DNA of 64,000 bases from a virus: positions 21,373-85,372 of IMG/VR virus record IMGVR_UViG_3300044712_000982; one strand, 5' to 3'. The notes below the pieces were generated by a model that saw only the letters and a list, made by a program, of their open reading frames with translations, was not told the DNA's origin and ran no database searches. The position numbers were made by a program, and so were the translations under genes. Shown here piece by piece: positions 2 through 53,501 of this stretch (position 1 is its first letter; every line of letters starts with the position of its first letter).

Positions 2-235
2 TGCGCCGGAGGCGTGTCATGCCCACACCGTCGTTGCGTCAACCCATGGCATCTAGAACCCGTCACGAAGGAAGAGAACGCACGTCGCAGCAATAAGCCC
101 AAGCGATCCAGTTGCCCACATGGACATGAATACAGTACCGAGAATACATACATAAATAAGCTCGGTAGACAAGTTTGCAGAACGTGCGCAAAGCGTTCTC
201 AGCAGAGATACGAGCAGCGACGGAAGGTGGCATAA
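2..235 (+). CDS. HNH endonuclease, 5' truncated by window edge
   Basis: HRRCVNPWHLEPVTKEEN HNH motif followed by CPHGH...CRTC zinc finger; AT-richer than flanks. Confidence 0.75.
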   Translation, partial: CAGGVSCPHRRCVNPWHLEPVTKEENARRSNKPKRSSCPHGHEYSTENTYINKLGRQVCRTCAKRSQQRYEQRRKVA

Positions 236-711
236 TGGCGGGCGACACTCCGATAACGATTCATGGCAACATTACGGGCGACATCGATCTACGCTTTACA
301 CCAAGCGGTGCCGCGACATGCAAGTTCACCGTCGCGTCGACACCACGACGCTTCGACAAGAACGCGAACACATGGGTCGACGGCGACCCGCTGTTCATGC
401 GCTGCACCGCATGGCGGCAACTCGCAGAGAATATCGCTGAGAGTACCGGCAAGGGGTCCCGAGTCATCGTTTCTGGCAATCTCAAGCTGGAGCGATGGGA
501 AAGCAAGGAAGGCGAAAAAAAATCCGCGCTCGTCTTGGAGGTCGACGACTTCGGGCTGTCGCTGAAGTTCGCGACAGGGAAGGTGCAGCGCATGGCGCGC
601 ACATCCGGCGGTGGCACGTCTGGCGGTGGCAGCGCGGCTGCTGGTGACGATCCGTGGGCGTCGTCGAAGCCAACCGGCGGGTCGGGCTTCGACGACCAGC
701 CGCCGTTCTGA
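235..711 (+). CDS. ssb: single-stranded DNA-binding protein
   Basis: MAGDTPITIHGNITGDIDLRFTPSGAA, WRQLAENIAES, Gly-rich linker, acidic DDQPPF tail; ATG overlaps upstream TAA. Confidence 0.95.
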   Translation: MAGDTPITIHGNITGDIDLRFTPSGAATCKFTVASTPRRFDKNANTWVDGDPLFMRCTAWRQLAENIAESTGKGSRVIVSGNLKLERWESKEGEKKSALVLEVDDFGLSLKFATGKVQRMARTSGGGTSGGGSAAAGDDPWASSKPTGGSGFDDQPPF

Positions 712-2518: not shown

Positions 2519-2758
2519 TCAGACCGGTTTTCCTTCGGCGATTCGCTTCGCGCGCGTGTCTGCGCGCCATCTCCGGATCGGCCCGCGCTTCTTCCCGGGC
2601 AGAGGTGTTGCCGGATGCTCCGCGCGCCACTCCATGTAGTCCCGGATGTCTTGAGCGCGGCCGAGGTCTCCTGTGACCTCGGTGTAGGCATCGAAGATCG
2701 GCGCGGGTACGCGGAAGCGACGGACGTCGGTCGTTGTCTTCTCCGCTTCCTCGGACAT
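2519..2758 (-). CDS. small ribbon-helix-helix-like regulator, copy 1
   Basis: RRFRVPAPIF strand-helix pattern; paralog of 6664-6867 sharing D-R-Y-EW...P-TPLPG-RGP. Confidence 0.6.
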   Translation of the reverse strand: MSEEAEKTTTDVRRFRVPAPIFDAYTEVTGDLGRAQDIRDYMEWRAEHPATPLPGKKRGPIRRWRADTRAKRIAEGKPV

Positions 2759-2827
2759 GGGCCGAGGGTACGACAGTTGCCCTCCGGATGTCTACAACCG
2801 CGACCACATCGACGTCTGGCGTGTGGC

Positions 2828-2864
2828 TTGATTTGTGGCACACCAGCAGCTACGTTTGTGGCAC
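2828..2864 (+). promoter_or_regulatory. sigma70-type promoter of the modification operon with overlapping direct repeats
   Basis: TTGATT-17 nt-TACGTT; TTTGTGGCAC at 2832-2841 and 2855-2864. Confidence 0.55.
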
Positions 2865-2889
2865 CAAAACTGATCACACTGGAGGCAGC

Positions 2890-4046
2890 GTGAGAGACGC
2901 CGAACTGTGCGCCGGCTTCGGGGGCTTGCACCTCGGCCTCCAACTCGCCGGACTCCCCGTCCATCTCGCGTGGTACGCCGAAAACGACCCCGCACCATCC
3001 GTCGTCATGGCCACCCACCACCCCGACACCCCCAACATCGGCGACATCACCACCGCCAACTGGGACGCAGCCGAACCGGTCGACATCCTCTGCGCCGGAT
3101 TTCCATGCCAGCCGTTCTCCCTCGCAGGGAAACGGCGCGGATCAGCCGACGAACGTCACCTCTGGCTCACCGGCGTGCTCCCCGCGATCACGACGCTTGA
3201 GCCCGAGGTCTTCTTCGGCGAGAACGTCCCCGGGCTGCTCACCATCGAACGCGGCGAGGTTTTCCGCGCGATCCTCACCGACCTCACCGCGCGCAACTAC
3301 ACCATCCGCTGGACCACCATCGGCGCCTGCAAAGTCGGCCTGTGCCACCACCGGCACCGCGTCTTCATCCTCGCAACCCGCCAGATCGGCGAACTCCCAC
3401 CCGAGTTGGGCATGCCGATCTCGGCCTGGTCCAGGGGCCGCAGCCGCAACCCGTGGCCGCGCGACGGAGTATGCGCGGGCGGCGAAGTGTGGGACGAACC
3501 TACCGACCACTGCCACAAGACCGGCCTACTGCCCACCCCGACCGCGACACCGTACGGCAACAACCAGACCGACAGCCCGGGTGCCGCCGTGCGCCCATCA
3601 CTCGACGCCCTCGCGCCACTCCTACCGACGCCACGCGCATCCGACGGCGAAAAGGGCGGCCCGAACCAGCGCGGATCATCCGGCGACCTCGCCCTACCCG
3701 CCGCCGTGCAGCCCGAACGGTGGGGCCAGTACGCCGAGGCCGTGTGGCGACACGAACTCATCACCGGCATGCGCGCACCCGACCCGACCATCACCGGCAA
3801 ACGCGGCGGACGTCGCCTCAATCCGGAGCTCACAGAGTGGATGCAAGGGCTACCGGCCGGGTGGATCACCGGCTCGATCCTGCCCGACAAGGACCCGCGT
3901 CCGGACCGCATCGACCGGAACGCCGCTAACAAGATCGCTGGAAACGGCGTGGCTGTTCCCGCCGTGGCTGCCGCCGTGCGCCGGCTACTCGACCGTGCTG
4001 GCTGGGCCGCGCTGCCATCCCAACCCGCACCGGAGGTGCAGCATGA
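2890..4046 (+). CDS. DNA (cytosine-5) methyltransferase; no in-frame stop at the expected end
   Basis: LCAGFGG (motif I), GFPCQPFS (IV), ENV (VI), HRHRVFIL (VIII), GNGVAVP (X); end set at the out-of-frame TGA 4044-4046, while the frame itself stays open to 5595. Confidence 0.9.
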
Positions 4047-4546
4047 GCAAGTTTCTATACGCGTTCGGCGCGTCGGTCGCCTACCTCGGCACGATCGTTG
4101 CCGCGAACTGGGCCATCGCAACGTTCGGCGCGGTCCCGGTCGGGTTCGGGCTCGTAGCACCCGCTGCGGTCTGGTTCGCAGGTCTCGCGTTCACGCTCCG
4201 GGACCTACTTCACGACGCAGCCGGACGCTGGGCGGTGCTCGCCGCAACTGCTGTCGGTGCGGTCTTGTCGGCCGCCGTCGCGGGTCCGGCCATGGCGCTG
4301 GCATCGGGCGTCGCGTTCGGCGTATCGGAGCTGGCGGACTTTGCCGTCTATGCCCCGTTGCGCCGTCGCCGCTGGCTCCTCGCCGTGGCCGCATCCAACG
4401 CATTCGGACTCGTGGCCGATTCGCTGCTGTTCCTCTGGCTGGCGTTTGGGTCGCTCGCGTTCCTGCCGGGCCAGATCGTCGGCAAAACCTGGATGACGAT
4501 CCTCGCCGTCGCAGTCCTCGCAGTGTGGCGGAGGTGCCGCAGGTGA
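4043..4546 (+). CDS. VUT/YhhQ-family (queuosine precursor type) membrane transporter
   Basis: Multi-TM protein with AANW, LAFTLRDL, FGVSELADFAVY, SNAFGLVADSLLFL, GQIVGK; GGAGG RBS. Confidence 0.8.
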   Translation: MSKFLYAFGASVAYLGTIVAANWAIATFGAVPVGFGLVAPAAVWFAGLAFTLRDLLHDAAGRWAVLAATAVGAVLSAAVAGPAMALASGVAFGVSELADFAVYAPLRRRRWLLAVAASNAFGLVADSLLFLWLAFGSLAFLPGQIVGKTWMTILAVAVLAVWRRCRR

Positions 4547-5392
4547 GGCTCTACCTCGGCGTGGACGTCGGCTGGCTCAACCGGCCCGAGATGGCTGGTA
4601 CGCCGCGCTGCGTCTCCCGCAACCGACTCGCCGGGCGTCGCAGCATCCAGCGCGCCAACGGGCCGATCCTCATCGACTCCGGTGCTTTCACCGAACTCAA
4701 AACCCACGGCCGGTGGCGCATCACCCCCGCAGAATACGTCGCCGAGGTGCGCCGCTACGTCGCAGCGATCGGGCCAGACAACGTCGTGGCCGTCGGGCCG
4801 ATGGACTGGATGTGCGAGTCCGTGGTCATCGACGGAGGCGTCACGAAAGACGGGCGCTTCGCCGGTACTCGTGCGGCCATCGGCATGCCAGACGCGAGCC
4901 TCGACGAGTGCATCGCTGAGCATCAGCGCCGCACCGTCGCCAACTACCTCGAACTCCGGGCGCTCGCGCCTGACCTGCCGATCATGCCCGTCTTGCAGGG
5001 CTCGACCCTCGACCAGTACCTCCGCTGCGTCGACATGTACCGGACGGCTGGTGTTGAACTGCGCACGGTGCCGCTCGTCGGGCTCGGCTCCGTCTGTCGA
5101 CGGCAGGCGTCGGACGAGATCGACCTGATCGTCACCACCCTCGAATCGCTCGGGATGTCCCTGCACGGGTTCGGCGTCAAGTCCGGCGGACTCGCCGCGT
5201 ATGGGCCGCTCCTCACCTCCGCCGACTCGATGGCCTGGTCCTACGGCGCCCGGAAACGCGGCGGCCGGTGCGTCCACGGGCTTGTCAGGTGGGAGACCAA
5301 CTGTCCCGCGTGGGCTGCCGCGTGGTGGCGCCGAACCACGGCACGTATCAACTGCGCGCAACCCGCGCTCGACCTTTGGAGTGCCGTCATGA
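4543..5392 (+). CDS. tRNA-guanine transglycosylase-fold (DpdA-like) protein
   Basis: ILIDSGAFTEL, PMDWMCE, IMPVLQG, GLGSVCRR, LHGFGVK, SADSMAWS; frame continues into 5389-5595. Confidence 0.7.
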
Positions 5393-5595
5393 CCGTCACC
5401 GCCACGTGGACGCGCCCCACGTGCGACACCTGCCGCGCGGTCTACACCCCGACCGGCCCGTACTGGGACGGCACCAACGACCGCATCGACGCCATGGCCC
5501 GCGCCGCCGGTTGGGGCATTGCCGTTGGTGTCACCCACGGTGGGCGCCCGTATGCGGCAGCGGCGTGCCCGACCTGCCGCCGTGGTGGTGCATGA
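5389..5595 (+). CDS. small Cys-rich protein, in frame with the TGT-like gene
   Basis: CDTC..CPTC; own GGAG RBS and ATG. Confidence 0.45.
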   Translation: MTVTATWTRPTCDTCRAVYTPTGPYWDGTNDRIDAMARAAGWGIAVGVTHGGRPYAAAACPTCRRGGA

Positions 5596-5999
5596 TGGGC
5601 GGCCAGCGAATCTCCAGCCAGCGGGTCGCCGAACTCGTCGCCCACTACCGACGGCACCGGTCAGCAGCCGCGGCGGCTCGATCTGTCGAGTGCTCCACAA
5701 GCGCCGCGATCAAGCACCTGCGCGCGGCCGGCATTGGGGTAACGTCGCCACCCCCGCCGGTCCGGACCGTGTGGGTCGACTTCGATAGCGCCGCGTTCTT
5801 CGCCGCCGTCGACGATGCCCGGCGCGAGCGGGGCGTGTCGTGGCGGACCGTGCTCGTCGAGGCCGGCATCAAGGGCGCTTCGTTCATCACCCGGTTTACT
5901 GGCGGGCAGACCCCGGATGCCAACAATTTGGTGCGTCTGCTGGCGTGGCTCGGCACGACCGACATGGGCCCGTACATGCGTAGCCGTGGTGATGCGTGA
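5592..5999 (+). CDS. double-HTH protein
   Basis: SAAAAARSVECSTSAAIKHL; RGVSWRTVLVEAGI...TPDANNLVRLLAWL. Confidence 0.6.
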   Translation: MMGGQRISSQRVAELVAHYRRHRSAAAAARSVECSTSAAIKHLRAAGIGVTSPPPPVRTVWVDFDSAAFFAAVDDARRERGVSWRTVLVEAGIKGASFITRFTGGQTPDANNLVRLLAWLGTTDMGPYMRSRGDA

Positions 6000-6607
6000 T
6001 GCCCGTGGCTTTGTTCCCGCCGGTCACCCACGGCGGCGCCGACCCGCGGCACTACGCCGACGCTGTGCCGCTGACGGAGGCGTTGCGGTGGATGCGCGGC
6101 CCGGGTAACGCGCGCTGGCATCGGGTCAGGTGGGGCGTCCGGCACGGCGACCACGTCAGTTGGTCGTACTGGTGCAACCCCGCGTCGTCGTTCAAGCTCG
6201 GCGGCCCGTACCAGCTCGACGAGTTGGCCGACGGCGAACCGACGTGCGCGAGGTGCGTCGAGCTGGCCGAGCGTCACGACCAGGACGGCATTCCCCTCGA
6301 CGTCGACCGGTACCGGCAGTGGGCTGATCTCGCACGCCGCCCCGCCGTCTGCCCCGGGTCGCGGCGGGCCGAACTGTGCCGGCCCTTTGACGAGACGCTG
6401 CGGGTCGGAGTGTGCCTCGCCTGCGGCGTCACCGAACAGGTCCGGCCGTACAGCGGCTACACCCGGTCCAGCTACGGGCTCGCGCGACACGCCCCGAATT
6501 TGGAGTTGCTCGACCCGTGCCCGTGGCACGAGTGGCGAGACGTGGTCGCCGTGGGTGAGGCGGCCGGGTGCAGGTGCGGATGGCATCAACGGGAGGCGCT
6601 GGAGTGA
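5996..6607 (+). CDS. hypothetical Cys/His-rich phage protein
   Basis: Coupled ORF, several CxxC motifs. Confidence 0.5.
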   Translation: MMPVALFPPVTHGGADPRHYADAVPLTEALRWMRGPGNARWHRVRWGVRHGDHVSWSYWCNPASSFKLGGPYQLDELADGEPTCARCVELAERHDQDGIPLDVDRYRQWADLARRPAVCPGSRRAELCRPFDETLRVGVCLACGVTEQVRPYSGYTRSSYGLARHAPNLELLDPCPWHEWRDVVAVGEAAGCRCGWHQREALE

Positions 6608-6663: not shown

Positions 6664-6867
6664 TCAGGCGTTCGCGCTGGTGGACTTGTTCCTCACGACT
6701 GGTCCGCGGCGCCGGCCGGGCAGCGGCGTGCGGGGATTGTCGACGCGCCACTCGATGTAGGCCCGCAGGTCGGCGGCTCTGCCGTGGTTTCCGACGACTC
6801 CGGCGTACTCGGCCCACAGCTCGGCGTTGACGCGGATTCCGCGCATTTCGCTTTCTGTCTTGGCCAC
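6664..6867 (-). CDS. small ribbon-helix-helix-like regulator, copy 2
   Basis: RGIRVNAELW; paralog of 2519-2758. Confidence 0.6.
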   Translation of the reverse strand: MAKTESEMRGIRVNAELWAEYAGVVGNHGRAADLRAYIEWRVDNPRTPLPGRRRGPVVRNKSTSANA

Positions 6868-6999: not shown

Positions 7000-7899
7000 A
7001 TGGCACGAACGGAAGCGCCGCAGGACCTGAGGCCGTACGTCCGGGTCATGACGGACCTGCCGCTTCACCCCAAACTGGCGCCCCTCGACAACCCGGCCGC
7101 CGGATGGACCTACGTCGTCTCGCTCTGCTACTGCGGCCAGAGCCTCACCGACGGGCACTTCCCCGTCGCCGCCGTGTTACGTCTGGCCGGCACCGACAAG
7201 GACGTGGCGGAGGCACTTGTCGAGCAGGGACTATGGCACTTGCCAGGACACGACTGCGAAGAATGCGACCAGCCGCGCTCCGGGCAGGCCGTCGTGCACG
7301 ACTACCTCAAACACCAGCGGTCATCGGCCGAAGCGCGCGACCTGAGCGAAAAGCGCCGAGAGGCAGGTCGACGCGGGGCAAAGGCCCGATGGGGATCACG
7401 ATCCGACGATGCCGACATGGCAAATGCTATGGCAAATGCCATGCCAAGTGCTGAGCAAGTGCCATGGCAAAACGATGGCAACGTGATGGCAGAGGAGAGT
7501 AGAGGAGAGAAGAAGAGAGAAGAGAAGAACAAGAAGACTTCGTCTTCTTCTCGTCGGAGAACCGACGAGCCTCCTCGACCAGACGTCGACCGACTCTGCG
7601 CACATCTCGTCGACAAGATCGTCAGCAACGGCTCTCGGCGTCCGACCATCACGAAGGCATGGCGGGATGCCGCCCGACTCATGCTCGACCGCGACGGCCG
7701 CACCGTCGAGCAGGTGATCAAAGCCATCGACTGGTGCCAGCGTGACGAGTTTTGGCGCGTCAACATCCTGTCGATGCCGACCCTGCGCGAAAAGTACGAC
7801 CGACTCCGACTCTCGGCGCAGCGCTCAGCCACCAACCAACCGTACGAAAACCCTCAAAACGAAGACGATTACGACGCGTGGAAAGGACCAAAGCCGTGA
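7000..7899 (+). CDS. phage replication initiator (lambda O/DnaD-like organisation)
   Basis: N-terminal HPKL...DGHFP, VHDYLKHQ; C-terminal AIDWCQRDEFWRVNILSMPTLREKYDRL; internal repeats; sits upstream of loader and helicase. Confidence 0.75.
   Translation: MARTEAPQDLRPYVRVMTDLPLHPKLAPLDNPAAGWTYVVSLCYCGQSLTDGHFPVAAVLRLAGTDKDVAEALVEQGLWHLPGHDCEECDQPRSGQAVVHDYLKHQRSSAEARDLSEKRREAGRRGAKARWGSRSDDADMANAMANAMPSAEQVPWQNDGNVMAEESRGEKKREEKNKKTSSSSRRRTDEPPRPDVDRLCAHLVDKIVSNGSRRPTITKAWRDAARLMLDRDGRTVEQVIKAIDWCQRDEFWRVNILSMPTLREKYDRLRLSAQRSATNQPYENPQNEDDYDAWKGPKP
7417..7537. repeat. putative replication origin: iterons plus purine tract inside the initiator gene
   Basis: ATGGCA(A) five times plus one ATGCCAA, followed by an A/G tract of about 45 nt. 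Confidence 0.55.
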
Positions 7900-8492
7900 C
7901 ATCCACGGAGACCTTCGACATGGTCGGACTGCGGACCGAACAGGCCCGCCATAATCTCGCCAAGATCCCCGTCATGTTCACCGACGAGATCGACATCCAC
8001 CCCGAGATCCGGGCATGGGTCGACAGCTACGCCGGCGACCCACAGACAACCCCGTCGATCGTCCTCTCCGGTCCGACCGGAGTCGGCAAGACCCACCAGG
8101 CATACCAGGCGATCCGCGAAGCCAGCCGAGCCCGCGCCGCAAACGGCAAGGCAACCTTCTGGCTCGCCACCAGCCACCCCGACCTCAACGCCACCCAACG
8201 CGTTGGCGCCGACCCAGACACCTCGCCAACCGTCGCCCTCGCCCGCTACATCAACGTCGACCTCCTCCTACTCGATGACGTCGGGGCGGGCAAGCAGACC
8301 GACTGGACTGCCGACACGCTCTACCGGCTCATCGACCACCGGTGGTCGAACCTGCGCCCAACGATCTACGCCACCAACCTCACCCCAAAGCAGATCACCG
8401 CGACACTCGGCGACCGCGTCGCATCCCGCATCGCCGACGCCATCCAGGTCATCATCAAGGGCGACGATCGACGCTGGGGGCGCGCCCGGTGA
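7896..8492 (+). CDS. DnaC/IstB-like AAA+ helicase loader
   Basis: SGPTGVGKT Walker A, LLLLDDVG Walker B, LIDHRW, TIYATNL, LGDRVASR. Confidence 0.9.
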   Translation: MTSTETFDMVGLRTEQARHNLAKIPVMFTDEIDIHPEIRAWVDSYAGDPQTTPSIVLSGPTGVGKTHQAYQAIREASRARAANGKATFWLATSHPDLNATQRVGADPDTSPTVALARYINVDLLLLDDVGAGKQTDWTADTLYRLIDHRWSNLRPTIYATNLTPKQITATLGDRVASRIADAIQVIIKGDDRRWGRAR

Positions 8493-9868
8493 CCGCCACG
8501 ATCCAGCCACAGACGGTTCCGGGCGAGGCTGAGCGGTGGGAGTCGCAACGCTACGACCTTGCCGCCGAGCGGGCAATCCTCGGCTGCCTCATGCTCAACC
8601 CCACCACCATCGCCGAAGCTGAGGCAAAACTCGCCAAGGACGCGTTCTACCGGCCGATCCACGGCAAAATCTTCGAAGCCGTCGCCGAACTCGCAGCCGA
8701 AGGCAAACCAACCGACGCGATTGCGGTAGCCGCCCGGCTCGCAGACCGCGGCTACCTCGGCGAGGTCGGAGGCGGCCCGTACCTGTGCGAACTCATGGAA
8801 TCCGTGCCGCTCGTCGCGAACATCGGCCACTACATCCGCATCGTCGCCGGGCTCCACCAACTACGGATACTCCGCTCAACCATCGACTACGCCTCCCAGC
8901 TCCTCTCAGCCGCCAGCCACGACGAAGCCGACCAGGTCACCCAGCAGATCCTCGACAGGATCGTGGACACCAACCGGGCCACAACCAGCGACGACGGACC
9001 AAAACCATGGTCCGAACTCGTCGGCCCGCTACTCGACGAGATCGAAGCCCGAGGTCAGCGCACCCCGGAAGAACAAGCCGAGCACGTCATCACAACCGGC
9101 TGGACCGACGTCGACCGGCAACTCTGCGGCGGCGGCAAACCAGGCCAACTCATCGTCATTGCCGGACGCCCTGGATCAGGAAAGTCGATCTCGGCCATGT
9201 GCTGGGCGCAGCACGCCGCCATGGACCAGGGCATACCCGCCGCCGTGTTCTCCCTCGAAATGGGCAAGACAGAACTCGGCTGCCGGCTCGCCGCAGCGGC
9301 CACCGGAGTGCCGCTACACAAGATCGACGCGGGCGACCTCGACGACCGCGACTGGGTGAAACTCGGTCGATGGGCTGGCGACACCAGCACGGCGCCGCTA
9401 TTTATCGACGACACCCCAACCATGACAGTGGCCGACATACGGGCTAGGTCGCGGAGACTCAAGCAGCAACACGGCATCCGCATGATCGTCGTCGACTATC
9501 TCCAGCTCGTCTCATCCGGCAGAGCCGAGAACCGTCAAGCCGCCGTTGCCGCGATGAGCCGCGGATTCAAACTCCTCGCGAAAGAACTCGAATGCGTCGT
9601 CATCCTCGTCGCGCAACTCAACCGCGGGCCAGAATCACGACAGGACAAACGCCCCGAGGTATCCGATCTCCGCGAGTCCGGAGCGATCGAGGCCGACGCC
9701 GACACGGTGATCCTCGTCCACGCCATGGACAGCAACGACAGCCCCCGAGCCGGCGAAGTCGACCTGATCATCGGCAAACAGCGTGGCGGGCCGACCGGCA
9801 CGCAAACTCTCGCAGACCAGCGGCATTTCACACGCTTTGTCTCGATGGCGCTGGAGGATGCGCCGTGA
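8489..9868 (+). CDS. dnaB: replicative DNA helicase
   Basis: AERAILG, AGRPGSGKS, FSLEM, VDYLQL, AQLNRGPE, SDLRESGAIEADAD. Confidence 0.96.
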   Translation: MTATIQPQTVPGEAERWESQRYDLAAERAILGCLMLNPTTIAEAEAKLAKDAFYRPIHGKIFEAVAELAAEGKPTDAIAVAARLADRGYLGEVGGGPYLCELMESVPLVANIGHYIRIVAGLHQLRILRSTIDYASQLLSAASHDEADQVTQQILDRIVDTNRATTSDDGPKPWSELVGPLLDEIEARGQRTPEEQAEHVITTGWTDVDRQLCGGGKPGQLIVIAGRPGSGKSISAMCWAQHAAMDQGIPAAVFSLEMGKTELGCRLAAAATGVPLHKIDAGDLDDRDWVKLGRWAGDTSTAPLFIDDTPTMTVADIRARSRRLKQQHGIRMIVVDYLQLVSSGRAENRQAAVAAMSRGFKLLAKELECVVILVAQLNRGPESRQDKRPEVSDLRESGAIEADADTVILVHAMDSNDSPRAGEVDLIIGKQRGGPTGTQTLADQRHFTRFVSMALEDAP

Positions 9869-10364: not shown

Positions 10365-11162
10365 GTGAGCCCGCCCACCGTTATCCCGATCCCAGACATC
10401 AAGATCGGGGGCCGATACCGTCGCTACGGCAACATCACGCCGCTCGCCGCCGACGTGCGCCGTAACGGCATCCGGCACCCGATCATCGTCACCAGCAGTG
10501 GACAGCTAGTGGACGGCTGGCGCCGCATTCAAGCCGCAACCCGTTGCGCCGCAACGGAAATCATCACGATCGAGTCGGACAGCATCCCCGAGATCGCAGA
10601 CATCATGGCAGGGATGCCTGCTGGCGAGCAGTGCCGGTTCAGTGACCTGATGCGCCACATCGACCTGATCTTCGAGTTGGATGCGAACGACGCGGAACGT
10701 CGCAGGATCGCCAACTCATCGTCGGCGGGACGTGGCGAACGGCGTGGCGGGAACGTCGGCGGGGCGCGGGGGTGCGCGTGCCGGATGCTGCGGATCTCGT
10801 TTCCGACATATGGGCGTGCCCGCTACCTGTGGGCGCGAGCTAGCAACAACCAGCAACTCGTCGCCGATCTCGATGCCGGCAAGATCAGCGTCAACCGGGC
10901 CTACGACATTGTCCGCGCGGCTGATCTTGCCGCGCGTCAATCGGCGACGGCCACAGATCGGCCGGACATGGCATCCCAACTCGGGGCGGTCAAAATGATC
11001 GCGGCCCAATGTGAGGGCATCGCCCACGGCATCCGCAGCCTCGGGATGATCTCCGAATCACCAGAGGACGCTGACCGGCTCACCCGACGCCTGAAGGCGA
11101 GCCGGTCAGCCATCACCAAGTTGATCAACCAACTCAACCGGAAGGAAACCAACCATGCCTAG
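10365..11162 (+). CDS. ParB/Srx N-terminal-domain protein with HTH
   Basis: LAADVRRNGIRHPIIV...LVDGWRRIQA; GKISVNRAY. Confidence 0.75.
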   Translation: MSPPTVIPIPDIKIGGRYRRYGNITPLAADVRRNGIRHPIIVTSSGQLVDGWRRIQAATRCAATEIITIESDSIPEIADIMAGMPAGEQCRFSDLMRHIDLIFELDANDAERRRIANSSSAGRGERRGGNVGGARGCACRMLRISFPTYGRARYLWARASNNQQLVADLDAGKISVNRAYDIVRAADLAARQSATATDRPDMASQLGAVKMIAAQCEGIAHGIRSLGMISESPEDADRLTRRLKASRSAITKLINQLNRKETNHA

Positions 11163-11922
11163 TGTGGAGCAAATCCCAGCCAACCGCCTCAAGGTCCCCA
11201 CGAAAATCCAGCGGCGACTCGACGTCAAGCGCGTCGAAAAGATGCTGGAAGAGTTCGACCTCGACGCCGTCGGCGCACTCACCGTGTCGCGCCGCGGCGG
11301 GGACCTCCTGGTCGTCGACGGTCAACACCGGGCCGAGGCGCTCCGGAAATCCGGCAACGGATCGACCCCCGTCCAGTGCATCGTCTACGACGGGCTCACC
11401 GAGCAGGATGAGGCGAAACTGTTTCGCCTCGCCAACAACACGAAGCGACTCGGCCCGATCGACCTGTTCAAGGCCCGCGTGATCGAAGGTGACACCACCG
11501 CATGTGACATCGACAAGATTCTGAAGGCTCGAGGCTGGAGGGTCGGATTCGGCGGCGACGGCGGATCATTCGGGGCGATCGCGGCCTTCGAGCGGATCTA
11601 CCAGGTCGACCGGAGCGTCGCCGTCAACACGATCAACGTCCTGACCGCCGCGTTCGGCATGACTCCGGCCGGAGTCAACGGCGCCATCATTACCGGCGTC
11701 GGCAACGTCATCGCCCACTACGGTGAGCAGCTCAACATCAACTCCCTGGCCACACGGCTCGGCCGAATCGATCCGGTCGAACTGCGGGCATCGGCGCAGA
11801 CCCTTTCGAGGTCGCGAGTCCGGAGGGTAAGCATTTCGAGCGCACTGTCCGGGCTCGTAGTCGAGGAGTACAACGCCAAGCCGAGATCCGAATCCACGCG
11901 ACTGCCCGACTGGCGCTACTAG
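11155..11922 (+). CDS. second ParB/Srx-like protein
   Basis: IQRRLD...GALTVSRR...VVDGQHRAEAL...EAKLF. Confidence 0.7.
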   Translation: MPSVEQIPANRLKVPTKIQRRLDVKRVEKMLEEFDLDAVGALTVSRRGGDLLVVDGQHRAEALRKSGNGSTPVQCIVYDGLTEQDEAKLFRLANNTKRLGPIDLFKARVIEGDTTACDIDKILKARGWRVGFGGDGGSFGAIAAFERIYQVDRSVAVNTINVLTAAFGMTPAGVNGAIITGVGNVIAHYGEQLNINSLATRLGRIDPVELRASAQTLSRSRVRRVSISSALSGLVVEEYNAKPRSESTRLPDWRY

Positions 11923-15148: not shown

Positions 15149-16639
15149 GTGACTGCGGTCCTGTCGCCGTGGGAGGCTGCGGCGCGACTGTTCGAGCCGA
15201 GGCGTCCGGTGGAGCCGTGCTCGTGGCCGTCGCCCGGTGCAATGGCGTGTGATCTTGACGCTCGGACGGTGCAGACTGCTGCGCTGAATCTGATTGATGA
15301 TGCGCTTGTCGATGTCGCTAACGGCGAGTGTTTGCGGCTGATGATTTCGATGAGTCCTCAAGAGGGCAAGTCTGAGAGGACGTCTCGGCGTTTTCCCTTG
15401 TGGGCGTTGCGCCGTAATCCGAATTTGCGGATCGCGATTGTTTCGTATGCTCATGGTGTCGCGCGGCGTTGGGGTCAGTTCATCCGCGACGACATCGTTA
15501 ACCACGGCGACAAGCTTGGTTTGGCTGTTGATCCGTCGTCGTCTGCGGCGCATGAGTGGAAGCTCGACGGGTACGACGGCGGGGTCTATTGTGTCGGAAT
15601 CAAAGGTTCGCTGACATCACGTGCCGTCGATCTGCTCATTATTGATGACCCATATAAGGATGGGGAACAGGCCGATTCGGCGGCCTGGCAGGAAACCGTC
15701 CGTGACTTCTGGACCGAAGTCGCAATTCCCCGGCTCGGGCCCGGTGTCGCCGTGGTCATCATTCAAACAAGATGGCGGCACGATGACCTGTCCGGCTGGC
15801 TGAAAGACCGCAACGACGGGGTTGCCTGGCGCGTCATCAACATCCCAGCCCAAGCCGACCATCGGCCCGAACTCGGCGAGGCCGACCCACTCGGCCGAGA
15901 GCCCGGCGAATACATGGCTTCCGCCCGCGGCCGGACCCCCGAACAATGGGAACAACGTCGCCGGGAGGTCGGCGAACGCTCTTGGAACGCGCTTTTTCAG
16001 GGGCGGCCAACGCCGGGCGAGGGAGGGCTGTTCCAGCGGTCCTGGTGGCGCCATTTCGACGCGATGCCGGCCTACCGGGCACCTGCGGGGACATGGCACG
16101 CCGACGCCGATCAGGTCATCCAATCATGGGACATGACATTCAAGGACACCAAAGGTTCCGACTACGTTGTCGGGCAGGTGTGGGCTCGCCGTGGCGCACA
16201 GGCGTGGCTCCTCGACCAGGTGCGCGACCGCATGGACTTCACCGCCACATGCAAAGCCGTCGAAGCGCTGTCGGCGAAATGGCCGCAGACGACGGCAAAA
16301 CTGGTCGAGGACAAGGCCAACGGCCCGGCCGTGATATCCCAGTTGCGCATGCATGTTCCGGGACTGATCGCCGTCGAGCCCGGAGGGTCGAAGTACGCCC
16401 GCGCGTCGGCTGTGGCGCCGCTGGTCGAGGCGGGAAACGTTTACATTCCGACGGCCGCGGTCGCGCCGTGGGTCGGATCTTTCGTTGAGGAGCTAGCCGG
16501 GTTCCCGGCGGCAAAGCATGACGATCAGGTCGATGCCGCGTCGCAGGCGCTGTCGAGGCTGATGCTCGGCGTTTCGGGTGTCGCATCGAGCGAGTGGCTG
16601 AATGCATACAAGAATGCATACAAGGATGCTGCTGGATGA
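15149..16639 (+). CDS. terL: terminase large subunit
   Basis: SPQEGKS, LLIIDDPYK, IQTRWRHDDL, SWDMTFK, EDKANG, HDDQVDA. Confidence 0.95.
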   Translation: MTAVLSPWEAAARLFEPRRPVEPCSWPSPGAMACDLDARTVQTAALNLIDDALVDVANGECLRLMISMSPQEGKSERTSRRFPLWALRRNPNLRIAIVSYAHGVARRWGQFIRDDIVNHGDKLGLAVDPSSSAAHEWKLDGYDGGVYCVGIKGSLTSRAVDLLIIDDPYKDGEQADSAAWQETVRDFWTEVAIPRLGPGVAVVIIQTRWRHDDLSGWLKDRNDGVAWRVINIPAQADHRPELGEADPLGREPGEYMASARGRTPEQWEQRRREVGERSWNALFQGRPTPGEGGLFQRSWWRHFDAMPAYRAPAGTWHADADQVIQSWDMTFKDTKGSDYVVGQVWARRGAQAWLLDQVRDRMDFTATCKAVEALSAKWPQTTAKLVEDKANGPAVISQLRMHVPGLIAVEPGGSKYARASAVAPLVEAGNVYIPTAAVAPWVGSFVEELAGFPAAKHDDQVDAASQALSRLMLGVSGVASSEWLNAYKNAYKDAAG

Positions 16640-16649
16640 CGGGGGGTGA

Positions 16650-19271
16650 ATGGTGGGGCGTCGCCGTACCCGTAGTCAGCGCACGGTCGTGAAGGCCGCC
16701 GCACCCACGATCACCCCGGCCGGCACGTTCACACCACAGCAGGTGCTCGGGTTGATGCAGGCCGCCCGAAGCGGGCAGGTCACGGGCGCGTTGGTGCCGC
16801 TGCCGCGGGTTGAGCCGCAGGTGGCGTTCGGGCCGGGCGTACCGCTCATCCCGGGCGCAATCGACCCGGTGCAGCCGTCCGGCCGCCCACTTCCGCGCCG
16901 CAACGAATATCCGGTCACGGCGAACCTGCCGGGCGTCACGGATCGGCTGGTGCCGTGGTCCGTGCTGCGCGACGCGGCAGAGCGCATCCCGCTGTTCCGC
17001 AAGTGCATCGAGATCCGCAAGAAGGAAGTGGCGACGGTCGAATGGACTGTCGCCGTCACCAAGGACGCCGTCAATGCGGCGCGTGAAGTCGACGGCGGGT
17101 CGAAAGTCGAGGTTGAGAAGGCGCTGCGGGAAAGGCTGGCGCCGGAAATCTCGCGGTGTACCGAGTTTTGGAGCGAGCCCGACCGGGACCAGGGGTACGC
17201 GTTCTCACGGTGGGTGACCGCCGTCCTCGAAGACCATTTGGTGTTGGATGCGATCGCGCTGTTTCCGCGTCGGACTCGGGGCGCGGTTGCCGGGCTCGGC
17301 AAAGACCTGTACGCGCTAGAATGCATCGACGGCAGTACGGTGAAGCCGTTGCGTGACCATCGTGGTGGTCGGCCGTTGCCCCCGAATCCGGCGTTTCAGC
17401 AGATTCTGCACGGATTCCCGCGCGGCGAATTCGTCGCCGATGTTGACGGCGACGGGAACGTCATCAACGGGTACACTGCGGACCGGCTGATTTATCTGCG
17501 GTCCAACGTCCGATCGTTCACCCCGTACGGGCTGTCGGCCGTCGAGCAGGCGCTGATGGACGGCGACCTGTACCTGAAGCGCATGCAGTGGATGGGCTCT
17601 GAGTACACCGATGGCGTCATGCCCACCGGATGGCTCAAGCAGGACGGGTCAATGCTCGGCTGGACGCCGCAGCAGGTCATGGACTTCGAGCGGCAAATCA
17701 ACGACGTCTACGGCGGCCAGTCCGCGATGCGGCACAGGCTCCGTGTCCTGCCGCCGGGGATTGAGCCGGTCGAATCGACGGACGTGGCCGAACGGTACCG
17801 GCCCGAATACGACCTGCACCTGATCAAGTTGGTTGCGGGACATTTCGACGTCACCATTGCCGAATTGGGCTTCACGGAGCAGGGTGGCCTCGGGTCCACC
17901 GGGTGGCATGAGGGCCAGGCCGACATACAAAACCGGCGCGCCACCCGCCCCGACATGCAATGGCTACAGGAAACCCTGACCGACATTTCGCGTCGACACA
18001 TCGGCATGCCCCGAGAGTTGGAACTCAAATTCTTGGGCTTCGATTCCGAGGATGAGGCCGAAGCGGACACGGTCACCCAGAACAGGGTGTGCACCGCGCG
18101 GATGACCATCAATGAGGCGCGCGACCAGACCGGGCAGCCGCGCCTCGACATCCCCGAAGCCGACATGCCGCTACTCATCTCCGGGAACAACGTCACCGTC
18201 CTCGAAGGTGCCGCCGATCGGGCTGCGGCCGGCGCGGAACTCGCACAGCGGGCCATCGTGGGTAAGCAGCCCGCGGAAGACGATGACGGAGAGTCGCCGG
18301 CCCCACTGGGCGCCACATCCGACACCGAGGATGCCGACAGCCCGCCGAAGCCAGCCGCCGCCGAAGACGCCGAAGCGGAGAAGTCCGTCAAAGCGGAGAT
18401 CGGCGCGTACCGGCGTTGGCTCCGCAAAGGCCACACCTCGCGCCCATTCGTCGCCGCCCACCTCACGAAGGCCGACATCGCCACCTACGGACTCGACCCG
18501 GCCACCATCACCCCCGCCGCAGGGCGTGATGCCGACCCAAAAGCGTGGCCCGGGTGGTCCCGGGACCGGCAAACCGCCAACCACTGGGCGCCCATCCTCG
18601 CGCAGGCTTTGACTGGGGCACTGCCCGATAGCCTCACGGCCGACTACCGGCAGACCCACCCCGACGCGTCCGAGACCGAACCCGCCGAACAGTGGCTCGA
18701 CGACCGCCGCGGCAAAGTCACTGCCACACTCGCCGCGGTACTCATTCCGCTGATGCTCGACGGCGCAGTCATCGGCGCACTGTCCACACGCGCCCTCGCC
18801 GCCAGCGGCACCGCAGCCGGGGCGATCGCCTCAGTCGACTGGCTTGGCTGGCGCCCGGGTGACACCGACCGGGCACGGCAGATCCTCGCCGCCACCGGCG
18901 TCGACACGGCGATAGTCGAGGCCGAGTCGCGACGTGCCGCGCAACAACTCACCGCGGGCAGGCTCACGGCAGCAGCTGCTGCGATCGCGGCCGGCACGAG
19001 CATCACGGCAGCGCTCAACGCGTCGCCATGGGCCGCCATGGTCGCACTGACCGAGGTTGGTCGCGCTGCTGAAATCGCGGCGGCAGTGATCCAGCCGGCA
19101 ACCGGGATGCGCCACCAGCGGTGGTATCTCGACCCGCGGGTGGACAACTGCCCCATCTGCATCGAAAACGCCGAATCCGGCCCGCTGCCCGTTGGCGTGG
19201 CGTGGCCATCCGGGCACATCCGCCCGCCCGTCCACCCCTGGTGCCGCTGCCATCTCGGAGGAGCCTCGTGA
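16650..19271 (+). CDS. portal protein fused to a MuF-like minor head domain
   Basis: Portal motifs IDGSTVKP, YGLSAVE, FDVTIAELG, TINEAR; C-terminal CPICIEN..PPVHPWCRC. Confidence 0.85.
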   Translation: MVGRRRTRSQRTVVKAAAPTITPAGTFTPQQVLGLMQAARSGQVTGALVPLPRVEPQVAFGPGVPLIPGAIDPVQPSGRPLPRRNEYPVTANLPGVTDRLVPWSVLRDAAERIPLFRKCIEIRKKEVATVEWTVAVTKDAVNAAREVDGGSKVEVEKALRERLAPEISRCTEFWSEPDRDQGYAFSRWVTAVLEDHLVLDAIALFPRRTRGAVAGLGKDLYALECIDGSTVKPLRDHRGGRPLPPNPAFQQILHGFPRGEFVADVDGDGNVINGYTADRLIYLRSNVRSFTPYGLSAVEQALMDGDLYLKRMQWMGSEYTDGVMPTGWLKQDGSMLGWTPQQVMDFERQINDVYGGQSAMRHRLRVLPPGIEPVESTDVAERYRPEYDLHLIKLVAGHFDVTIAELGFTEQGGLGSTGWHEGQADIQNRRATRPDMQWLQETLTDISRRHIGMPRELELKFLGFDSEDEAEADTVTQNRVCTARMTINEARDQTGQPRLDIPEADMPLLISGNNVTVLEGAADRAAAGAELAQRAIVGKQPAEDDDGESPAPLGATSDTEDADSPPKPAAAEDAEAEKSVKAEIGAYRRWLRKGHTSRPFVAAHLTKADIATYGLDPATITPAAGRDADPKAWPGWSRDRQTANHWAPILAQALTGALPDSLTADYRQTHPDASETEPAEQWLDDRRGKVTATLAAVLIPLMLDGAVIGALSTRALAASGTAAGAIASVDWLGWRPGDTDRARQILAATGVDTAIVEAESRRAAQQLTAGRLTAAAAAIAAGTSITAALNASPWAAMVALTEVGRAAEIAAAVIQPATGMRHQRWYLDPRVDNCPICIENAESGPLPVGVAWPSGHIRPPVHPWCRCHLGGAS

Positions 19272-20088: not shown

Positions 20089-21036
20089 ATGCGCGTTGGA
20101 GTCACCGGCGGAGCCGGATTCATCGGCGGTCACGTCGTGGCCGAGTTGCGGGGCGCCGGCCACGACCCGATGGTGTTCGATACGCGTGGCCGCATCGCCC
20201 ACGGCGCACCGGTCATGATGGGCGACGTCCGCGACGCAACAGCCGTCACCGAGTTCGCAGCCCACGTCGATGCGATCATCCACCTTGCGGCGGTGCTGGG
20301 CACGCAGGAGACGATCACCAATCCGCGCCCGTCGGCCGAAACAAACATCATCGGCGCGTTGAACATCTTCGAAGCCGCAGCCCAGTACTCGCTGCCGACC
20401 GTCTATGCGGGCGTCGGGAACCATTGGATGCGCAACCACGGAACCGGCGCCTACACCATCTCGAAGACGGCCGCCGAGGACTTTGCGCGCATGCACAACG
20501 CCTACCGCGGCGGGCGCATTACCATCGTCAGGCCCGTCAATGCCTACGGCTGCGGGCAGTCGGTAGCCGCACCGTACGGCTCGTCGAAGGTCCGCAAGAT
20601 AACCCCCGCGTTCGTGTGTCGAGCATTGACCGGTGCGCCCATCGAGGTCTACGGCGACGGCACCCAAATCAGCGACATGGTCCACGTATCCGACGTCGCC
20701 CACGCCTTCGTCGCCGCCATCGACCACACCGCGCAGCATGGCGCCACCGTCAAGCCCGTCGAAGTCGGGCCGCCCACCAGCCACACCGTCAACCAGGTCG
20801 CTGAGCTGGTCATCAAGGCCGCCGCCGACCTCGGATACCCGCCCGTCGAACTGACACACCTGCCGATGCGGCCCGGAGAAGTCCCCAACGCCGTTGTGTC
20901 CGCCGACGTCTCGACCCTCGCGCAGGTAGGCATCGACCCGGGCGCATTCGTGCCGCTCGACGCGGGTATCTCCGGAACTGTCGCATGGTTCGCCGAGCAC
21001 TGGCTCCCCGGCTACCTCGCCAGCCGGTCGTCATGA
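20089..21036 (+). CDS. NAD-dependent nucleotide-sugar epimerase/dehydratase
   Basis: VTGGAGFIGGH, IIHLAA, YTISK (YxxxK), RPVNAYG, VYGDGTQISDMVHVSDVA. Confidence 0.92.
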   Translation: MRVGVTGGAGFIGGHVVAELRGAGHDPMVFDTRGRIAHGAPVMMGDVRDATAVTEFAAHVDAIIHLAAVLGTQETITNPRPSAETNIIGALNIFEAAAQYSLPTVYAGVGNHWMRNHGTGAYTISKTAAEDFARMHNAYRGGRITIVRPVNAYGCGQSVAAPYGSSKVRKITPAFVCRALTGAPIEVYGDGTQISDMVHVSDVAHAFVAAIDHTAQHGATVKPVEVGPPTSHTVNQVAELVIKAAADLGYPPVELTHLPMRPGEVPNAVVSADVSTLAQVGIDPGAFVPLDAGISGTVAWFAEHWLPGYLASRSS

Positions 21037-51280: not shown

Positions 51281-51531
51281 TCGATTCCCTCCAGTATCGC
51301 GTAGGCGACCGCGGCCACCTGGACTAGTTCTTCACGGAGCGCGTCCGGGTCGCAGTCGAGCGCGGCCCGTGCGACCTCCCCGCATTCCTCCGTCAATACG
51401 GCAACCTTCACCATTAGCGGCACGTCGGGGCTGGAGCAGTCCCCGTGGCCGTGCGCATGCTGGCGTCCCCACAGCCGACGTTGCCGCGCACGCTCGGCGG
51501 CAACGTCGGCTGTAATGTCGTCGAATTTCAC
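51277..51531 (-). CDS. MazG-like nucleotide pyrophosphohydrolase
   Basis: VLTEECGEVARA..LREELVQVAAVA. Confidence 0.8.
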   Translation of the reverse strand: MKFDDITADVAAERARQRRLWGRQHAHGHGDCSSPDVPLMVKVAVLTEECGEVARAALDCDPDALREELVQVAAVAYAILEGIE

Positions 51532-53501
51532 AGCTCGAACAGCCGCGGCTGCGACATCTCGTCGTCGAGACCGCGCAGCGTCTTGACTGCGGTCTCCCAG
51601 TAGGACGGCTTCAGTTCGATGCCGAGCGCGCGGCGTCCCCGCTTGACGGACACATACAGCTCGGATCCGATGCCGGCGAACGGCGTGAACACAGTCTCGC
51701 CCTGCCGTGAATACATCCGGACGCACCGGTCGATGAAATCCAACTGGAGAGGACAGTTGTGAACGACGGCGCCCTCCGCGACGAAAGAGGCGTCGTCCTC
51801 CACCTGAAGGTCCCATACCTCTGCGAATCCTGAGGGCTGCGAACGGCGCACCTTCTTCCATGCTCCGTCGGTGTCTATCCACCCAGACTGGCGGTATCCC
51901 TCACTGTTCCGAAAGGCGAAGATCCAGTCCTGGCGGGCAACGACCGACCGACCGTCGATCACGTGCTTGCGTTCTGGTCGGCCAGCGTAAACGCTCGCCA
52001 CCACGCCACGGGCACGCTGTGCCACCATGGCCATGCCCAGCAGGAGCGCCCGAGATACCGACGATGCCGTCCACCGGTCGTAGCGTCCGACGTAGTGACC
52101 ATCGGCCGACAGATATCCGGCCAACAGTGCCTCCGCTTTCGGCTGTGGCAACGTCAGAAGTTCCCCCGGCACTCGCTTTCGATGGGCACCCTCGCCGCAA
52201 CGGGCTAGCGTGGCGCGGAGGTCGGGTGACAGGTTCCTGAGGCTGACTTGGATGTCGGTGCCGGGGTCATGGGCCGCCCCTGCCTGGTGCCCCAGTCGCT
52301 CCGAAAGTTCGGCGAATTCACCCCGCGCGCACGACAGGATGAACTGACCCGTTCCGCCCCGTACGCCACTACGGCGATGAGCCGACGCTCGGTGTCCATC
52401 GCCCAGCCACCTACCAATGACCCAACACTCATGCTCGCTGAGTGGTGACTCTTCTATCGGAGGCAACGGAAGGTTGAGGTACGAACCCAGCGTTTCAGAT
52501 GCCGGAATCCACTCCGGCGCAGCAGACTGGGCTCGAGCCTTGGCATGAGGCCCAACACCCCGACGGGCCCACAGCATATGGTCGGCGGTGGTACGAAGAT
52601 CTGCAACCCCCTGGGCGCATGTACGAATCACCGGCTCAATGCCGTTGCACCGCTTCGCGGTTACCGCACGCCATCGGCCATGGTGGGTCAATACCTCGCC
52701 CCCCACCGGTACGGTCTCGATCGGCACGTACCCGTCCCGGGTAAGCACCAGCGATCCTTCGGCCAAGCAGATGTGCCTCTCATCCTCCGGATCGCGGCCG
52801 GCACGGACGTTGAGCGTGTTCGTCTCCTTGATGTCGGTCCATACCGGAGAGATGTGCTCACCGCCGAGCGCGGCACCCTCGCCACGGTCGAACCAGATCG
52901 GCGACGCCCACTCGATCCACTCATCGTTGGTGAAGTCCCCACCCTTCGCGTCGTGCGGGATCTTCGCCGCGTTGTCGCCGGGCTTCTTGAAAATCAGAAG
53001 GTAGTCGGCGAGTGCCGGGCGGATACCCATCGAATCGCGGTTCTTGGTCTGAAATGCGAGCGAATACGAATGCGTGCGGATACTCTGCGCCTGCGGGTCT
53101 TTCCAGATCGTAGCCTCCCCATAGAAGATCCATCCCTCATCCTGGAATGCCCGGATCACGTCGCCGCGGAAGTCGGTCAGTCCGATGTGCCCGTGGGTGA
53201 CCTTCGACGTCGTGAGCTGCTGAACGTGCACGCAGGCGTTGCGTCCCGGCTTCGTGATCCGCAGCTGCTCACGGATGATGAACCGGTAGTGGTCCAGGAA
53301 TTCCGTACGGGTGGACGAGTTGCCCAGGTCGCGGACGCTCGGCGAATAGACGAAGAGCGAAGCGAACGGGGGGCTACACACTGACAGGTCGACCGACTCA
53401 TCCGGAATCTCGGCCATGCGCTCGCACGAGTCGCCGAGCATGAGCCGCCACATGTCGCCGCATGCGTCGTCGGTCACGTATCCGTCGGTCTCGGTGGTCA
53501 C
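51528..53501 (-). CDS. DNA N6-adenine/N4-cytosine methyltransferase with intein
   Basis: LGDSCE, SVCSPPF, KPGRNACVH; after intein CPLQLDFIDRC, FTPFAGIGSE. Confidence 0.9.
   Translation of the reverse strand: MTTETDGYVTDDACGDMWRLMLGDSCERMAEIPDESVDLSVCSPPFASLFVYSPSVRDLGNSSTRTEFLDHYRFIIREQLRITKPGRNACVHVQQLTTSKVTHGHIGLTDFRGDVIRAFQDEGWIFYGEATIWKDPQAQSIRTHSYSLAFQTKNRDSMGIRPALADYLLIFKKPGDNAAKIPHDAKGGDFTNDEWIEWASPIWFDRGEGAALGGEHISPVWTDIKETNTLNVRAGRDPEDERHICLAEGSLVLTRDGYVPIETVPVGGEVLTHHGRWRAVTAKRCNGIEPVIRTCAQGVADLRTTADHMLWARRGVGPHAKARAQSAAPEWIPASETLGSYLNLPLPPIEESPLSEHECWVIGRWLGDGHRASAHRRSGVRGGTGQFILSCARGEFAELSERLGHQAGAAHDPGTDIQVSLRNLSPDLRATLARCGEGAHRKRVPGELLTLPQPKAEALLAGYLSADGHYVGRYDRWTASSVSRALLLGMAMVAQRARGVVASVYAGRPERKHVIDGRSVVARQDWIFAFRNSEGYRQSGWIDTDGAWKKVRRSQPSGFAEVWDLQVEDDASFVAEGAVVHNCPLQLDFIDRCVRMYSRQGETVFTPFAGIGSELYVSVKRGRRALGIELKPSYWETAVKTLRGLDDEMSQPRLFEL
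51756..52769 (-). mobile_element. intein (338 aa) with LAGLIDADG homing endonuclease
   Basis: C1-LAEGSLVLT, T.DH block B, GRWLGDG and LAGYLSADG, VWDLQVEDDASFVAEGAVVHN followed by Cys+1. Confidence 0.93.

Follow-up and report, generated by a model that had tools for sequence, protein, structure and literature searches.

A short YhhQ-type transporter gene coupled to a DpdA-family transglycosylase gene in an uncultivated soil phage: a candidate route to 7-deazaguanine DNA modification by import

The window analysed here is a 64,000-nucleotide stretch of viral DNA, bases 21373-85372 of the IMG/VR record IMGVR_UViG_3300044712_000982. Between window positions 2890 and 5595 it carries a cassette of genes, all on the plus strand, encoding a C5 cytosine DNA methyltransferase (C5-MTase), a short VUT/YhhQ-type membrane protein (VUT) and a DpdA-family guanine transglycosylase (DpdA). 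The source record is 106,285 bp long with direct terminal repeats, is rated 100% complete and has a G+C content of 65.7%. It belongs to an uncultivated tailed phage of soil, and rhizosphere metagenomes are the only sequencing runs found to hold its sequence. The closest cellular homologues of the C5-MTase and DpdA occur in filamentous actinomycetes (such as Micromonospora, Actinoplanes and Streptomyces), and a megablast comparison of the cassette with 50,697 phage records returned no match. An earlier sequence-only reading had assigned the same three genes and had proposed that the phage imports, rather than makes, a 7-deazaguanine precursor for its DNA; Pfam, NCBIfam and PHROG profiles together with a fold search confirm the gene assignments.

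The DpdA core spans 4543-5388 (plus strand, GTG start, 282 amino acids) in a reading frame that ends at 5595. It matches PF23859 with an E value of 3.3e-59 (200.7 bits against a cutoff of 27) and phrog_1279 with an E value of 2e-64. The DSGAF, PVLQG and HGFG motifs named in the sequence-only reading are located at 4675, 4987 and 5164, respectively. In core numbering the key residues are D45-S-G-A-F49, D88, Q152, H208-G-F-G and D228-S, and across 32 homologues D45, S46, F49, D88, Q152, G180, G182, H208, G209, G211, D228 and S229 are invariant, among them the three active-site aspartates expected of the tRNA-guanine transglycosylase (TGT) superfamily, in the DSGAF, PxD and ADS motifs (D45, D88 and D228). 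Searches of the PDB with DpdA, by sequence and by profile, gave chance matches only, and a fold search was therefore required to tie the protein to a solved structure. An AlphaFold2 (AF2) model built with the 32 homologues has a mean predicted local distance difference test score (pLDDT) of 83, with values of 93-99 over most of residues 1-230. The best solved match by Foldseek is 7ui4, the DpdA of Salmonella Montevideo, a DNA preQ0 insertase (E 1.9e-6), followed by ArcTGT (1iq8) and by bacterial and eukaryotic TGTs, each with a probability of 1.00. Like 7ui4, the window protein adopts the TIM-barrel TGT fold, and its active-site aspartates follow one another as they do there (catalytic, then base-reading, then nucleophile). 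The two proteins are only 15% identical with a template-modelling (TM) score of 0.41, and the large Ins8 insertion of 7ui4 is absent from the window protein. In Salmonella DpdA (SmDpdA), mutagenesis and modelling assigned D95 as acid/base, F99 as a gate, D130 to base recognition and D256 as nucleophile (PMC10164549); D45, F49, D88 and D228 match these four in order and spacing, a correspondence drawn from motif order and invariance and not from residue-level superposition. The same active-site motifs are kept in the DpdA of phage CAjan and in gp20 of Mycobacterium phage Orion. No PUA or other tRNA-binding domain is present in the 282-amino acid core. Some actinomycete and metagenome homologues (P0140-P0153) are longer, at about 500 amino acids, and carry an N-terminal extension of about 215 amino acids that belongs to no Pfam family.

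Directly upstream, at 4043-4546 (plus strand), is the gene for a 167-amino acid membrane protein of the VUT/QPTR (YhhQ) type, the candidate 7-deazaguanine importer, whose stop overlaps the DpdA start as GTGA. It scores above the cutoff of PF02592 (37.9 bits against 27.2, E 3e-9) and matches phrog_4899 over its full length (E 9e-38). Profile and structure searches against DpdA and YhhQ had been suggested as a check of the earlier proposal, and this match, together with PF23859 and the top fold match to 7ui4, supports the family assignment of both proteins. VUT falls below the NCBIfam equivalog cutoffs (35.4 against 50.95 bits for TIGR00697 and 26.5 against 252 for NF008406), and by these profile scores it is a homologous but distinct short subfamily (phrog_4899). 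Escherichia coli YhhQ/QPTR (COG1738, PF02592), which imports preQ0 and preQ1, is homologous to VUT over the full length (38% over 71 amino acids, E 7e-10), and the helices of both contain invariant polar residues (Asn, Asp, Ser and Asp). A crude Kyte-Doolittle scan combined with this alignment gives approximately six hydrophobic segments in the 167 residues. E. coli YhhQ is 221 amino acids long, whereas the phage protein is 54 residues shorter and is without some 20 residues in the middle and 30 at the C terminus. In comparison with a related contig, L002, which is 81% identical in DNA sequence over 2891-5384, DpdA is 93% identical at the amino acid level with a ratio of nonsynonymous to synonymous substitution (dN/dS) of 0.08, and dN/dS for VUT is 0.14. 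By this comparison, both genes are intact and under strong purifying selection.

The first gene of the cassette, the C5-MTase at 2890-4042 (plus strand), begins with a GTG at 2890 that is preceded by GGAGG. It matches PF00145 (E 2.7e-39, 135.9 bits), TIGR00675 (124.9 bits against a cutoff of 100.65) and phrog_116/363, which cover residues 5-368, and it contains motifs I (CAGFGG), IV (GFPCQ), VI (ENV) and X (GNGV). Its amino acid identity to the L002 methylase is 73%, with a dN/dS of 0.30. The gene lacks a stop codon of its own: its frame is uninterrupted between 2734 and 5593, and counted from the GTG to 5595 it forms a single frame of 901 codons that runs through the methylase, across the overprinted VUT gene and on through DpdA and a small gene behind it. 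In L002 the trio consists of separate open reading frames (ORFs) of 376, 167 and 285 amino acids linked by four-base overlaps, and the methylases of L002 (...EVPA*) and of a second contig, L001 (...GGAA*), both stop at the TGA of an ATGA overlap. Within approximately 4026-4042 the window is one base shorter than L002 and L001 (deletion site 4026-4046, plus strand), and therefore the TGA at 4044-4046, part of the ancestral overlap, leaves the methylase frame; a frame-0 reading gives GGAA*, like L001. A one-base deletion, which looks recent, thus removed the methylase stop. The GGAGG at 4032-4036 remains in front of the VUT ATG at 4043. Third-position G+C (GC3) indicates that the coding frame shifts to that of VUT at about 4000-4540 and then reverts. 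The Joint Genome Institute (JGI) annotation of the source contig includes VUT and DpdA, and the methylase is absent from it. Logan contigs from two runs (25x and 21x) are identical to the window over 2700-5700, which excludes an artefact of the JGI assembler; the two runs possibly derive from the source sample and hence are not independent. The one other contig with the same DpdA, L008, is 100% identical and is probably the source record itself. A programmed frameshift that would restore the methylase stop was considered and set aside, as inspection by eye of the sequence upstream of 4044 revealed no slippery heptamer.

The last 68 codons of the DpdA ORF, at 5389-5595 (plus strand), encode a zinc-ribbon-like CxxC...CxxC protein, with a GGAG and an ATG of their own in frame with DpdA. 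This segment is missing from every DpdA relative (approximately 80% coverage), the L002 DpdA terminates before it (...LDLWGAATRR*), and in the AF2 model it forms a tail with pLDDT below 60. A free-standing homologue of 71 amino acids with 74% identity (L104:620-835) is located behind a C5-MTase gene, via an ATGA overlap. We conclude that 5389-5595 is a separate small gene that is read in frame as a DpdA tail, and the zinc-ribbon protein may travel with DNA-modification genes.

A phage that inserts 7-deazaguanine into its DNA could make the precursor itself. The sequence-only reading found no FolE, QueD, QueE or QueC in the window, and this absence extends to the complete 106,285-bp genome, in which QueC, PTPS/QueD, radical SAM, GTP cyclohydrolase I and QueF were all unmatched at E<=1 by profiles (PF06508, PF01242, PF04055, PF01227 and PF14489) each of which responded in control genomes. 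Likewise, tblastn of the genome with the preQ0 enzymes of phages CAjan and Rosebush gave no match.

In order to see what accompanies VUT elsewhere, we examined the best 80 VUT loci in IMG/VR. A DpdA-type gene is present in the flanks of 77, in 76 of them less than 700 nt away, and a Que gene is found within 5 kb in only two to three of the 80. Two of the three VUT loci that have no DpdA place VUT near a contig end (L143 and L146), and the third has a QueC-like match instead (L176). At least three DpdA lineages, mutually undetectable by BLAST, supplied the queries that best match the DpdA neighbours, and the VUTs nearest to that of the window pair with other DpdA types. The pairing has therefore arisen anew several times, an argument that the two genes are functionally linked. 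A C5-MTase, by contrast with this core, is within 5 kb in only 6 of the 80 VUT loci and nearby in 5 of 80 DpdA loci. The coupling to a C5-MTase that had been proposed earlier thus stands to the extent that the gene shares the operon; on these counts it is lineage-specific, outside the conserved VUT-DpdA core, and the methylase has lost its stop. Among actinomycete genomes, VUT is directly upstream in 17 of 80 PF23859 loci, and a Que gene lies within 6 kb in none of the 80. Among DpdA relatives, the closest (L009-L012) have no VUT.

The same pairing is seen in phages that have been cultured or deposited, where VUT and a DpdA-type gene occur within three genes of each other in eight of nine lineages (Aoka, the cluster-P mycobacteriophages, RHph_N3_2, RHph_X2_30, Pam5, phiLM21, CRP-701 and CAjan), the one unpaired VUT being on an 8.8-kb unannotated fragment. 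The two-gene arrangement of the window is reproduced in phiLM21 of Sinorhizobium (p025/p026), Aoka of Arthrobacter (gp38/gp40), StevieRay of Mycobacterium and other cluster-P phages (gp53/gp54) and Pam5 of Pseudanabaena (gp28/gp30), with further pairs in the Rhizobium phages RHph_N3_2 and RHph_X2_30 and the Roseobacter phage CRP-701. No modification test of these cultured phages was found in the searched literature. QueC and QueD are absent from all four VUT-DpdA phages that were searched whole. The phiLM21 DpdA belongs to the same family as that of the window (36% identity), whereas most cultured pairs involve shorter DpdA-like proteins of about 210-230 amino acids from other lineages, with a methylase nearby in only some. 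Pfam finds no match in the DpdA-like proteins of Aoka, StevieRay, Pam5 and the RHph phages or in CAjan DpdA, and the short proteins are assigned by GenBank annotation, shared motifs and mutual BLAST matches. In CRP-701, gp6 (L016:2358-2957), directly upstream of VUT, is annotated as ssDNA-binding but shares 48% identity with its DpdA-like counterparts in Aoka and StevieRay; it is probably mis-annotated. Taken across these genomes, the VUT-DpdA module is widespread and not special to this phage.

An import-and-insert arrangement of this kind was anticipated by the literature (PMC6884629, PMC7544227), and the window is one more case, with no new component. Hutinet et al. (2019) described phages with DpdA only ("group 3") as the largest group of DpdA phages and proposed host supply or uptake of the base (PMC6884629). 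The same authors noted that some phages encode YhhQ homologues, uncorrelated with any group (PMC6884629), and homologues have been reported alongside complete pathways in CAjan, EC151 and Seuratvirus (PMC7544227, PMC8310023). A near-obligate pairing of short VUT with DpdA, mostly with no pathway nearby, was not found stated in the searchable literature.

On balance we lean toward the interpretation that the operon is an early-expressed anti-restriction system of a tailed actinophage-like virus in which VUT imports a 7-deazaguanine and DpdA inserts it into DNA. The operon would be expressed early, among the replication genes. Embedded in the membrane of the host, VUT would bring in an external 7-deazaguanine (preQ0 most likely, preQ1 or queuine possibly), and DpdA would exchange guanine in phage DNA for the imported base by TGT-type double displacement. 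Asp228 would be the nucleophile that forms a covalent intermediate and Asp45 the general acid/base, while Asp88 and Gln152 would recognise the base. The C5-MTase would add 5-methylcytosine independently, and the modifications together would blunt host restriction. Ribosomes that start at 2890 would read about 165 out-of-frame codons over VUT before continuing in frame through DpdA and the zinc-ribbon gene, and VUT and DpdA would still be served by the GGAGG sites and starts that each retains. We infer the direction of transport, the substrate, DNA rather than tRNA as the target, and the modification itself. An uncharacterised base, or stacking with N6-methyladenine or N4-methylcytosine (m6A/m4C), both raised in the sequence-only reading, is speculation.

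Several observations weigh against this interpretation. In addition to the sub-cutoff equivalog scores of VUT and the motif-based nature of the catalytic mapping, QPTR substrates vary by species between preQ0/preQ1 and queuine (PMC11130926). No member of the PF23859 lineage has been shown to modify DNA, and the two phage DpdAs that have been linked to dPreQ0 measurements, those of CAjan and Rosebush, both go unmatched by PF23859. The sole PF23859 phage member that has been tested is Orion, the virion DNA of which is without 7-deazaguanine (PMC6884629). CAjan, a Seuratvirus, does contain dPreQ0 in a dpdA-dependent manner (PMC7544227), and its gp41, a "preQ0 transporter" clustered with the DpdA gp35, is a short VUT of 159 amino acids with the same LRD, SE-x-AD-x-x-VY and DS motifs; deletion of this VUT homologue nevertheless left modification unchanged (PMC7544227). 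Finally, the hosts may make preQ0 themselves, as is suggested by a full-length QueC in three of five actinomycete genomes that carry VUT-DpdA (E about 1e-73).

The last two points lead to the main rival, that a host preQ0 pathway supplies the base and VUT is a dispensable supplement as in CAjan. We regard this as unlikely, though it is the strongest of the alternatives. Besides the CAjan deletion and the QueC genes, the absence of VUT beside the closest DpdA relatives speaks for it. CAjan differs from the window phage in several respects: it encodes FolE, QueD, QueE and QueC, of which the window phage has none, and its transporter is therefore dispensable because CAjan makes the precursor itself. 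CAjan DpdA (LDSGAF and CDS motifs) is also of another lineage with no PF23859 match, in a cluster that has no C5 methylase. However, dispensability is hard to square with a viral VUT that is nearly never found without an adjacent DpdA and mostly has no Que genes nearby. Moreover, two of the five host genomes are without a real QueC, and the cluster-P phages infect Mycobacterium smegmatis, which is devoid of a preQ0 pathway (PMC6884629). For the earlier proposal of import, then, the pathway-free genome and the linkage in 77 of 80 loci are in its favour, while the three QueC-bearing actinomycete genomes leave room for a host source.

A second alternative, which we judge improbable, though less so than those that follow, is that the cassette is silent or decaying and the DNA is unmodified as in Orion, with erosion showing in the loss of the methylase stop and in the run-on of DpdA. 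Orion gp20 is of the same DpdA family (PF23859, E 1.9e-142), is 43% identical to the window DpdA with all motifs kept, and like the window phage Orion has no preQ0 pathway. Two stops are missing within 2.7 kb, and dN/dS is higher for the methylase than for its neighbours. Orion itself is not among the VUT matches, and the window phage adds a putative importer to the same enzyme; the authors blamed the Orion result on the absence of a precursor source in either the phage or M. smegmatis (PMC6884629). Strong purifying selection on intact DpdA and VUT relative to L002, the ribosome-binding sites and starts that both genes have kept, and a deletion that affects the last few methylase codons only speak against erosion, and an open 167-codon alternative frame arises by chance in 13% of windows in the same relative frame of this G+C-rich genome.

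It is also conceivable that the pair serves RNA or host queuosine (Q) metabolism, with Q precursors imported and tRNA altered in order to tune translation. The fold is common to tRNA-guanine transglycosylases, and some phages have Q-pathway genes and no DpdA (PMC6884629). Yet the best solved match is a DNA insertase, the core has no PUA or tRNA-binding domain, and the gene is situated amid those for a single-stranded DNA-binding protein (SSB), a replication initiator, a DnaC-like loader, DnaB and a DNA methylase, and we consider this explanation very improbable. Equally far-fetched is a purposeful 901-codon frame encoding a bifunctional methylase-DpdA-zinc-ribbon protein with the transporter overprinted in its linker, for although no stop interrupts the frame between 2890 and 5595 and the Logan contigs of both runs (21-25x) carry an identical sequence, in L002 the three genes are separate and their stops overlap normally, GC3 shows the linker to be non-coding in that frame, its translation is Arg-rich with no family match, openness by chance is 13% per window as given above, and the zinc-ribbon protein is free-standing elsewhere.

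If import and insertion by VUT and DpdA are indeed at work, phage restriction resistance could be conditional on environmental metabolites, which bears on soil phage ecology and on the engineering of host range. The role of the DpdA-only phage enzymes has been open since Hutinet et al. (2019), and the pairing with VUT points to salvage as one answer. A bolder version, which we offer tentatively and hold to be possible rather than probable, is that short VUT plus DpdA is a self-sufficient, portable module that uses any environmental 7-deazaguanine, including in hosts with no queuosine pathway. Sources of the base may include preQ0, preQ1, queuine and deazapurine intermediates from neighbouring actinomycetes. 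If correct, this would explain the role of the large "DpdA-only" class of phages. StevieRay in M. smegmatis, Aoka and phiLM21 provide tractable systems, in which preQ0 feeding should switch modification on.

The cassette is bracketed by two ribbon-helix-helix (RHH)-like genes on the minus strand. One, of 79 amino acids at 2519-2758, is a gene call made in this analysis and is divergent from the cassette; the other, of 67 amino acids at 6664-6867, is its paralogue by BLASTP (49% identity over 57 amino acids, E 7e-21). The region between the first and the C5-MTase (2759-2889, plus strand) is the presumed promoter/operator. It contains two exact copies of TTGTGGCAC, at 2833-2841 and 2856-2864, 23 bp apart, and this 9-mer is not enriched in the rest of the window. 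The pair may be an operator. No sigma-70 consensus was found in the 2759-2889 region.

Downstream of the zinc-ribbon gene, the co-oriented run continues with orf135 (5592-5999, plus strand), which is helix-turn-helix (HTH)-like by eye and whose start overlaps the previous stop (ATGA), and ends with orf203 (5996-6607, plus strand), which is Cys/His-rich. Neither of these, nor the zinc-ribbon protein, matches any Pfam, PHROG or NCBIfam family. The orf203 family comprises proteins of about 200 amino acids in 69 representative clusters, with further sites at L073 and L078 6864-7463 and at L036 4722-5282, and adjoins DpdA in 3 of 80 actinomycete loci. We considered orf203 as a new DpdA partner and dropped it, since no DpdA is near orf203 in two other phage contigs and neither fold nor Atlas gave a lead. 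In L001, 4482-4883 matches orf203 by tblastn (36% identity, E 6.5e-12) in another frame that overlaps the 3' end of the L001 methylase gene, where base composition or a second, overlapping gene may account for the match.

The replication genes around the cassette are SSB (window 175-708), the replication initiator (7000-7896), the DnaC-like loader (7878-8489) and DnaB (8489-9865). Beyond these are two neighbouring ParB-like genes on the plus strand (10365-11159 and 11164-11919), the second of which is DUF6551 with a weak DndB match. The bacterial DpdB has a ParB fold. With respect to the bacterial Dpd restriction-modification system of Salmonella, no DpdB partner was identified for the window DpdA, and no DpdC-K genes were present among the neighbours scanned. 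In Rosebush a ParB-like protein, gp1, adjoins DpdA; it has no match here, no evidence ties the pair at 10365-11919 to the cassette, and a ParB-like DpdB equivalent was accordingly rejected.

The N6/N4 DNA methylase that the sequence-only reading had seen as a source of m6A/m4C does exist, at 51531-53501 on the minus strand, but an intein-like insert splits it, with matches to Hint, intein-splicing and LAGLIDADG models at residues 244-582, and the methylase domain picks up again at 517-639. Elsewhere the genome encodes a DNA polymerase III beta clamp, an SNF2 helicase and an FtsK-like ATPase. A terminase (15425-16636) and a portal (16689-19268) are also encoded, and past the portal, within the structural module, is a gene for an NAD-dependent sugar epimerase/dehydratase (20089-21033, plus strand).

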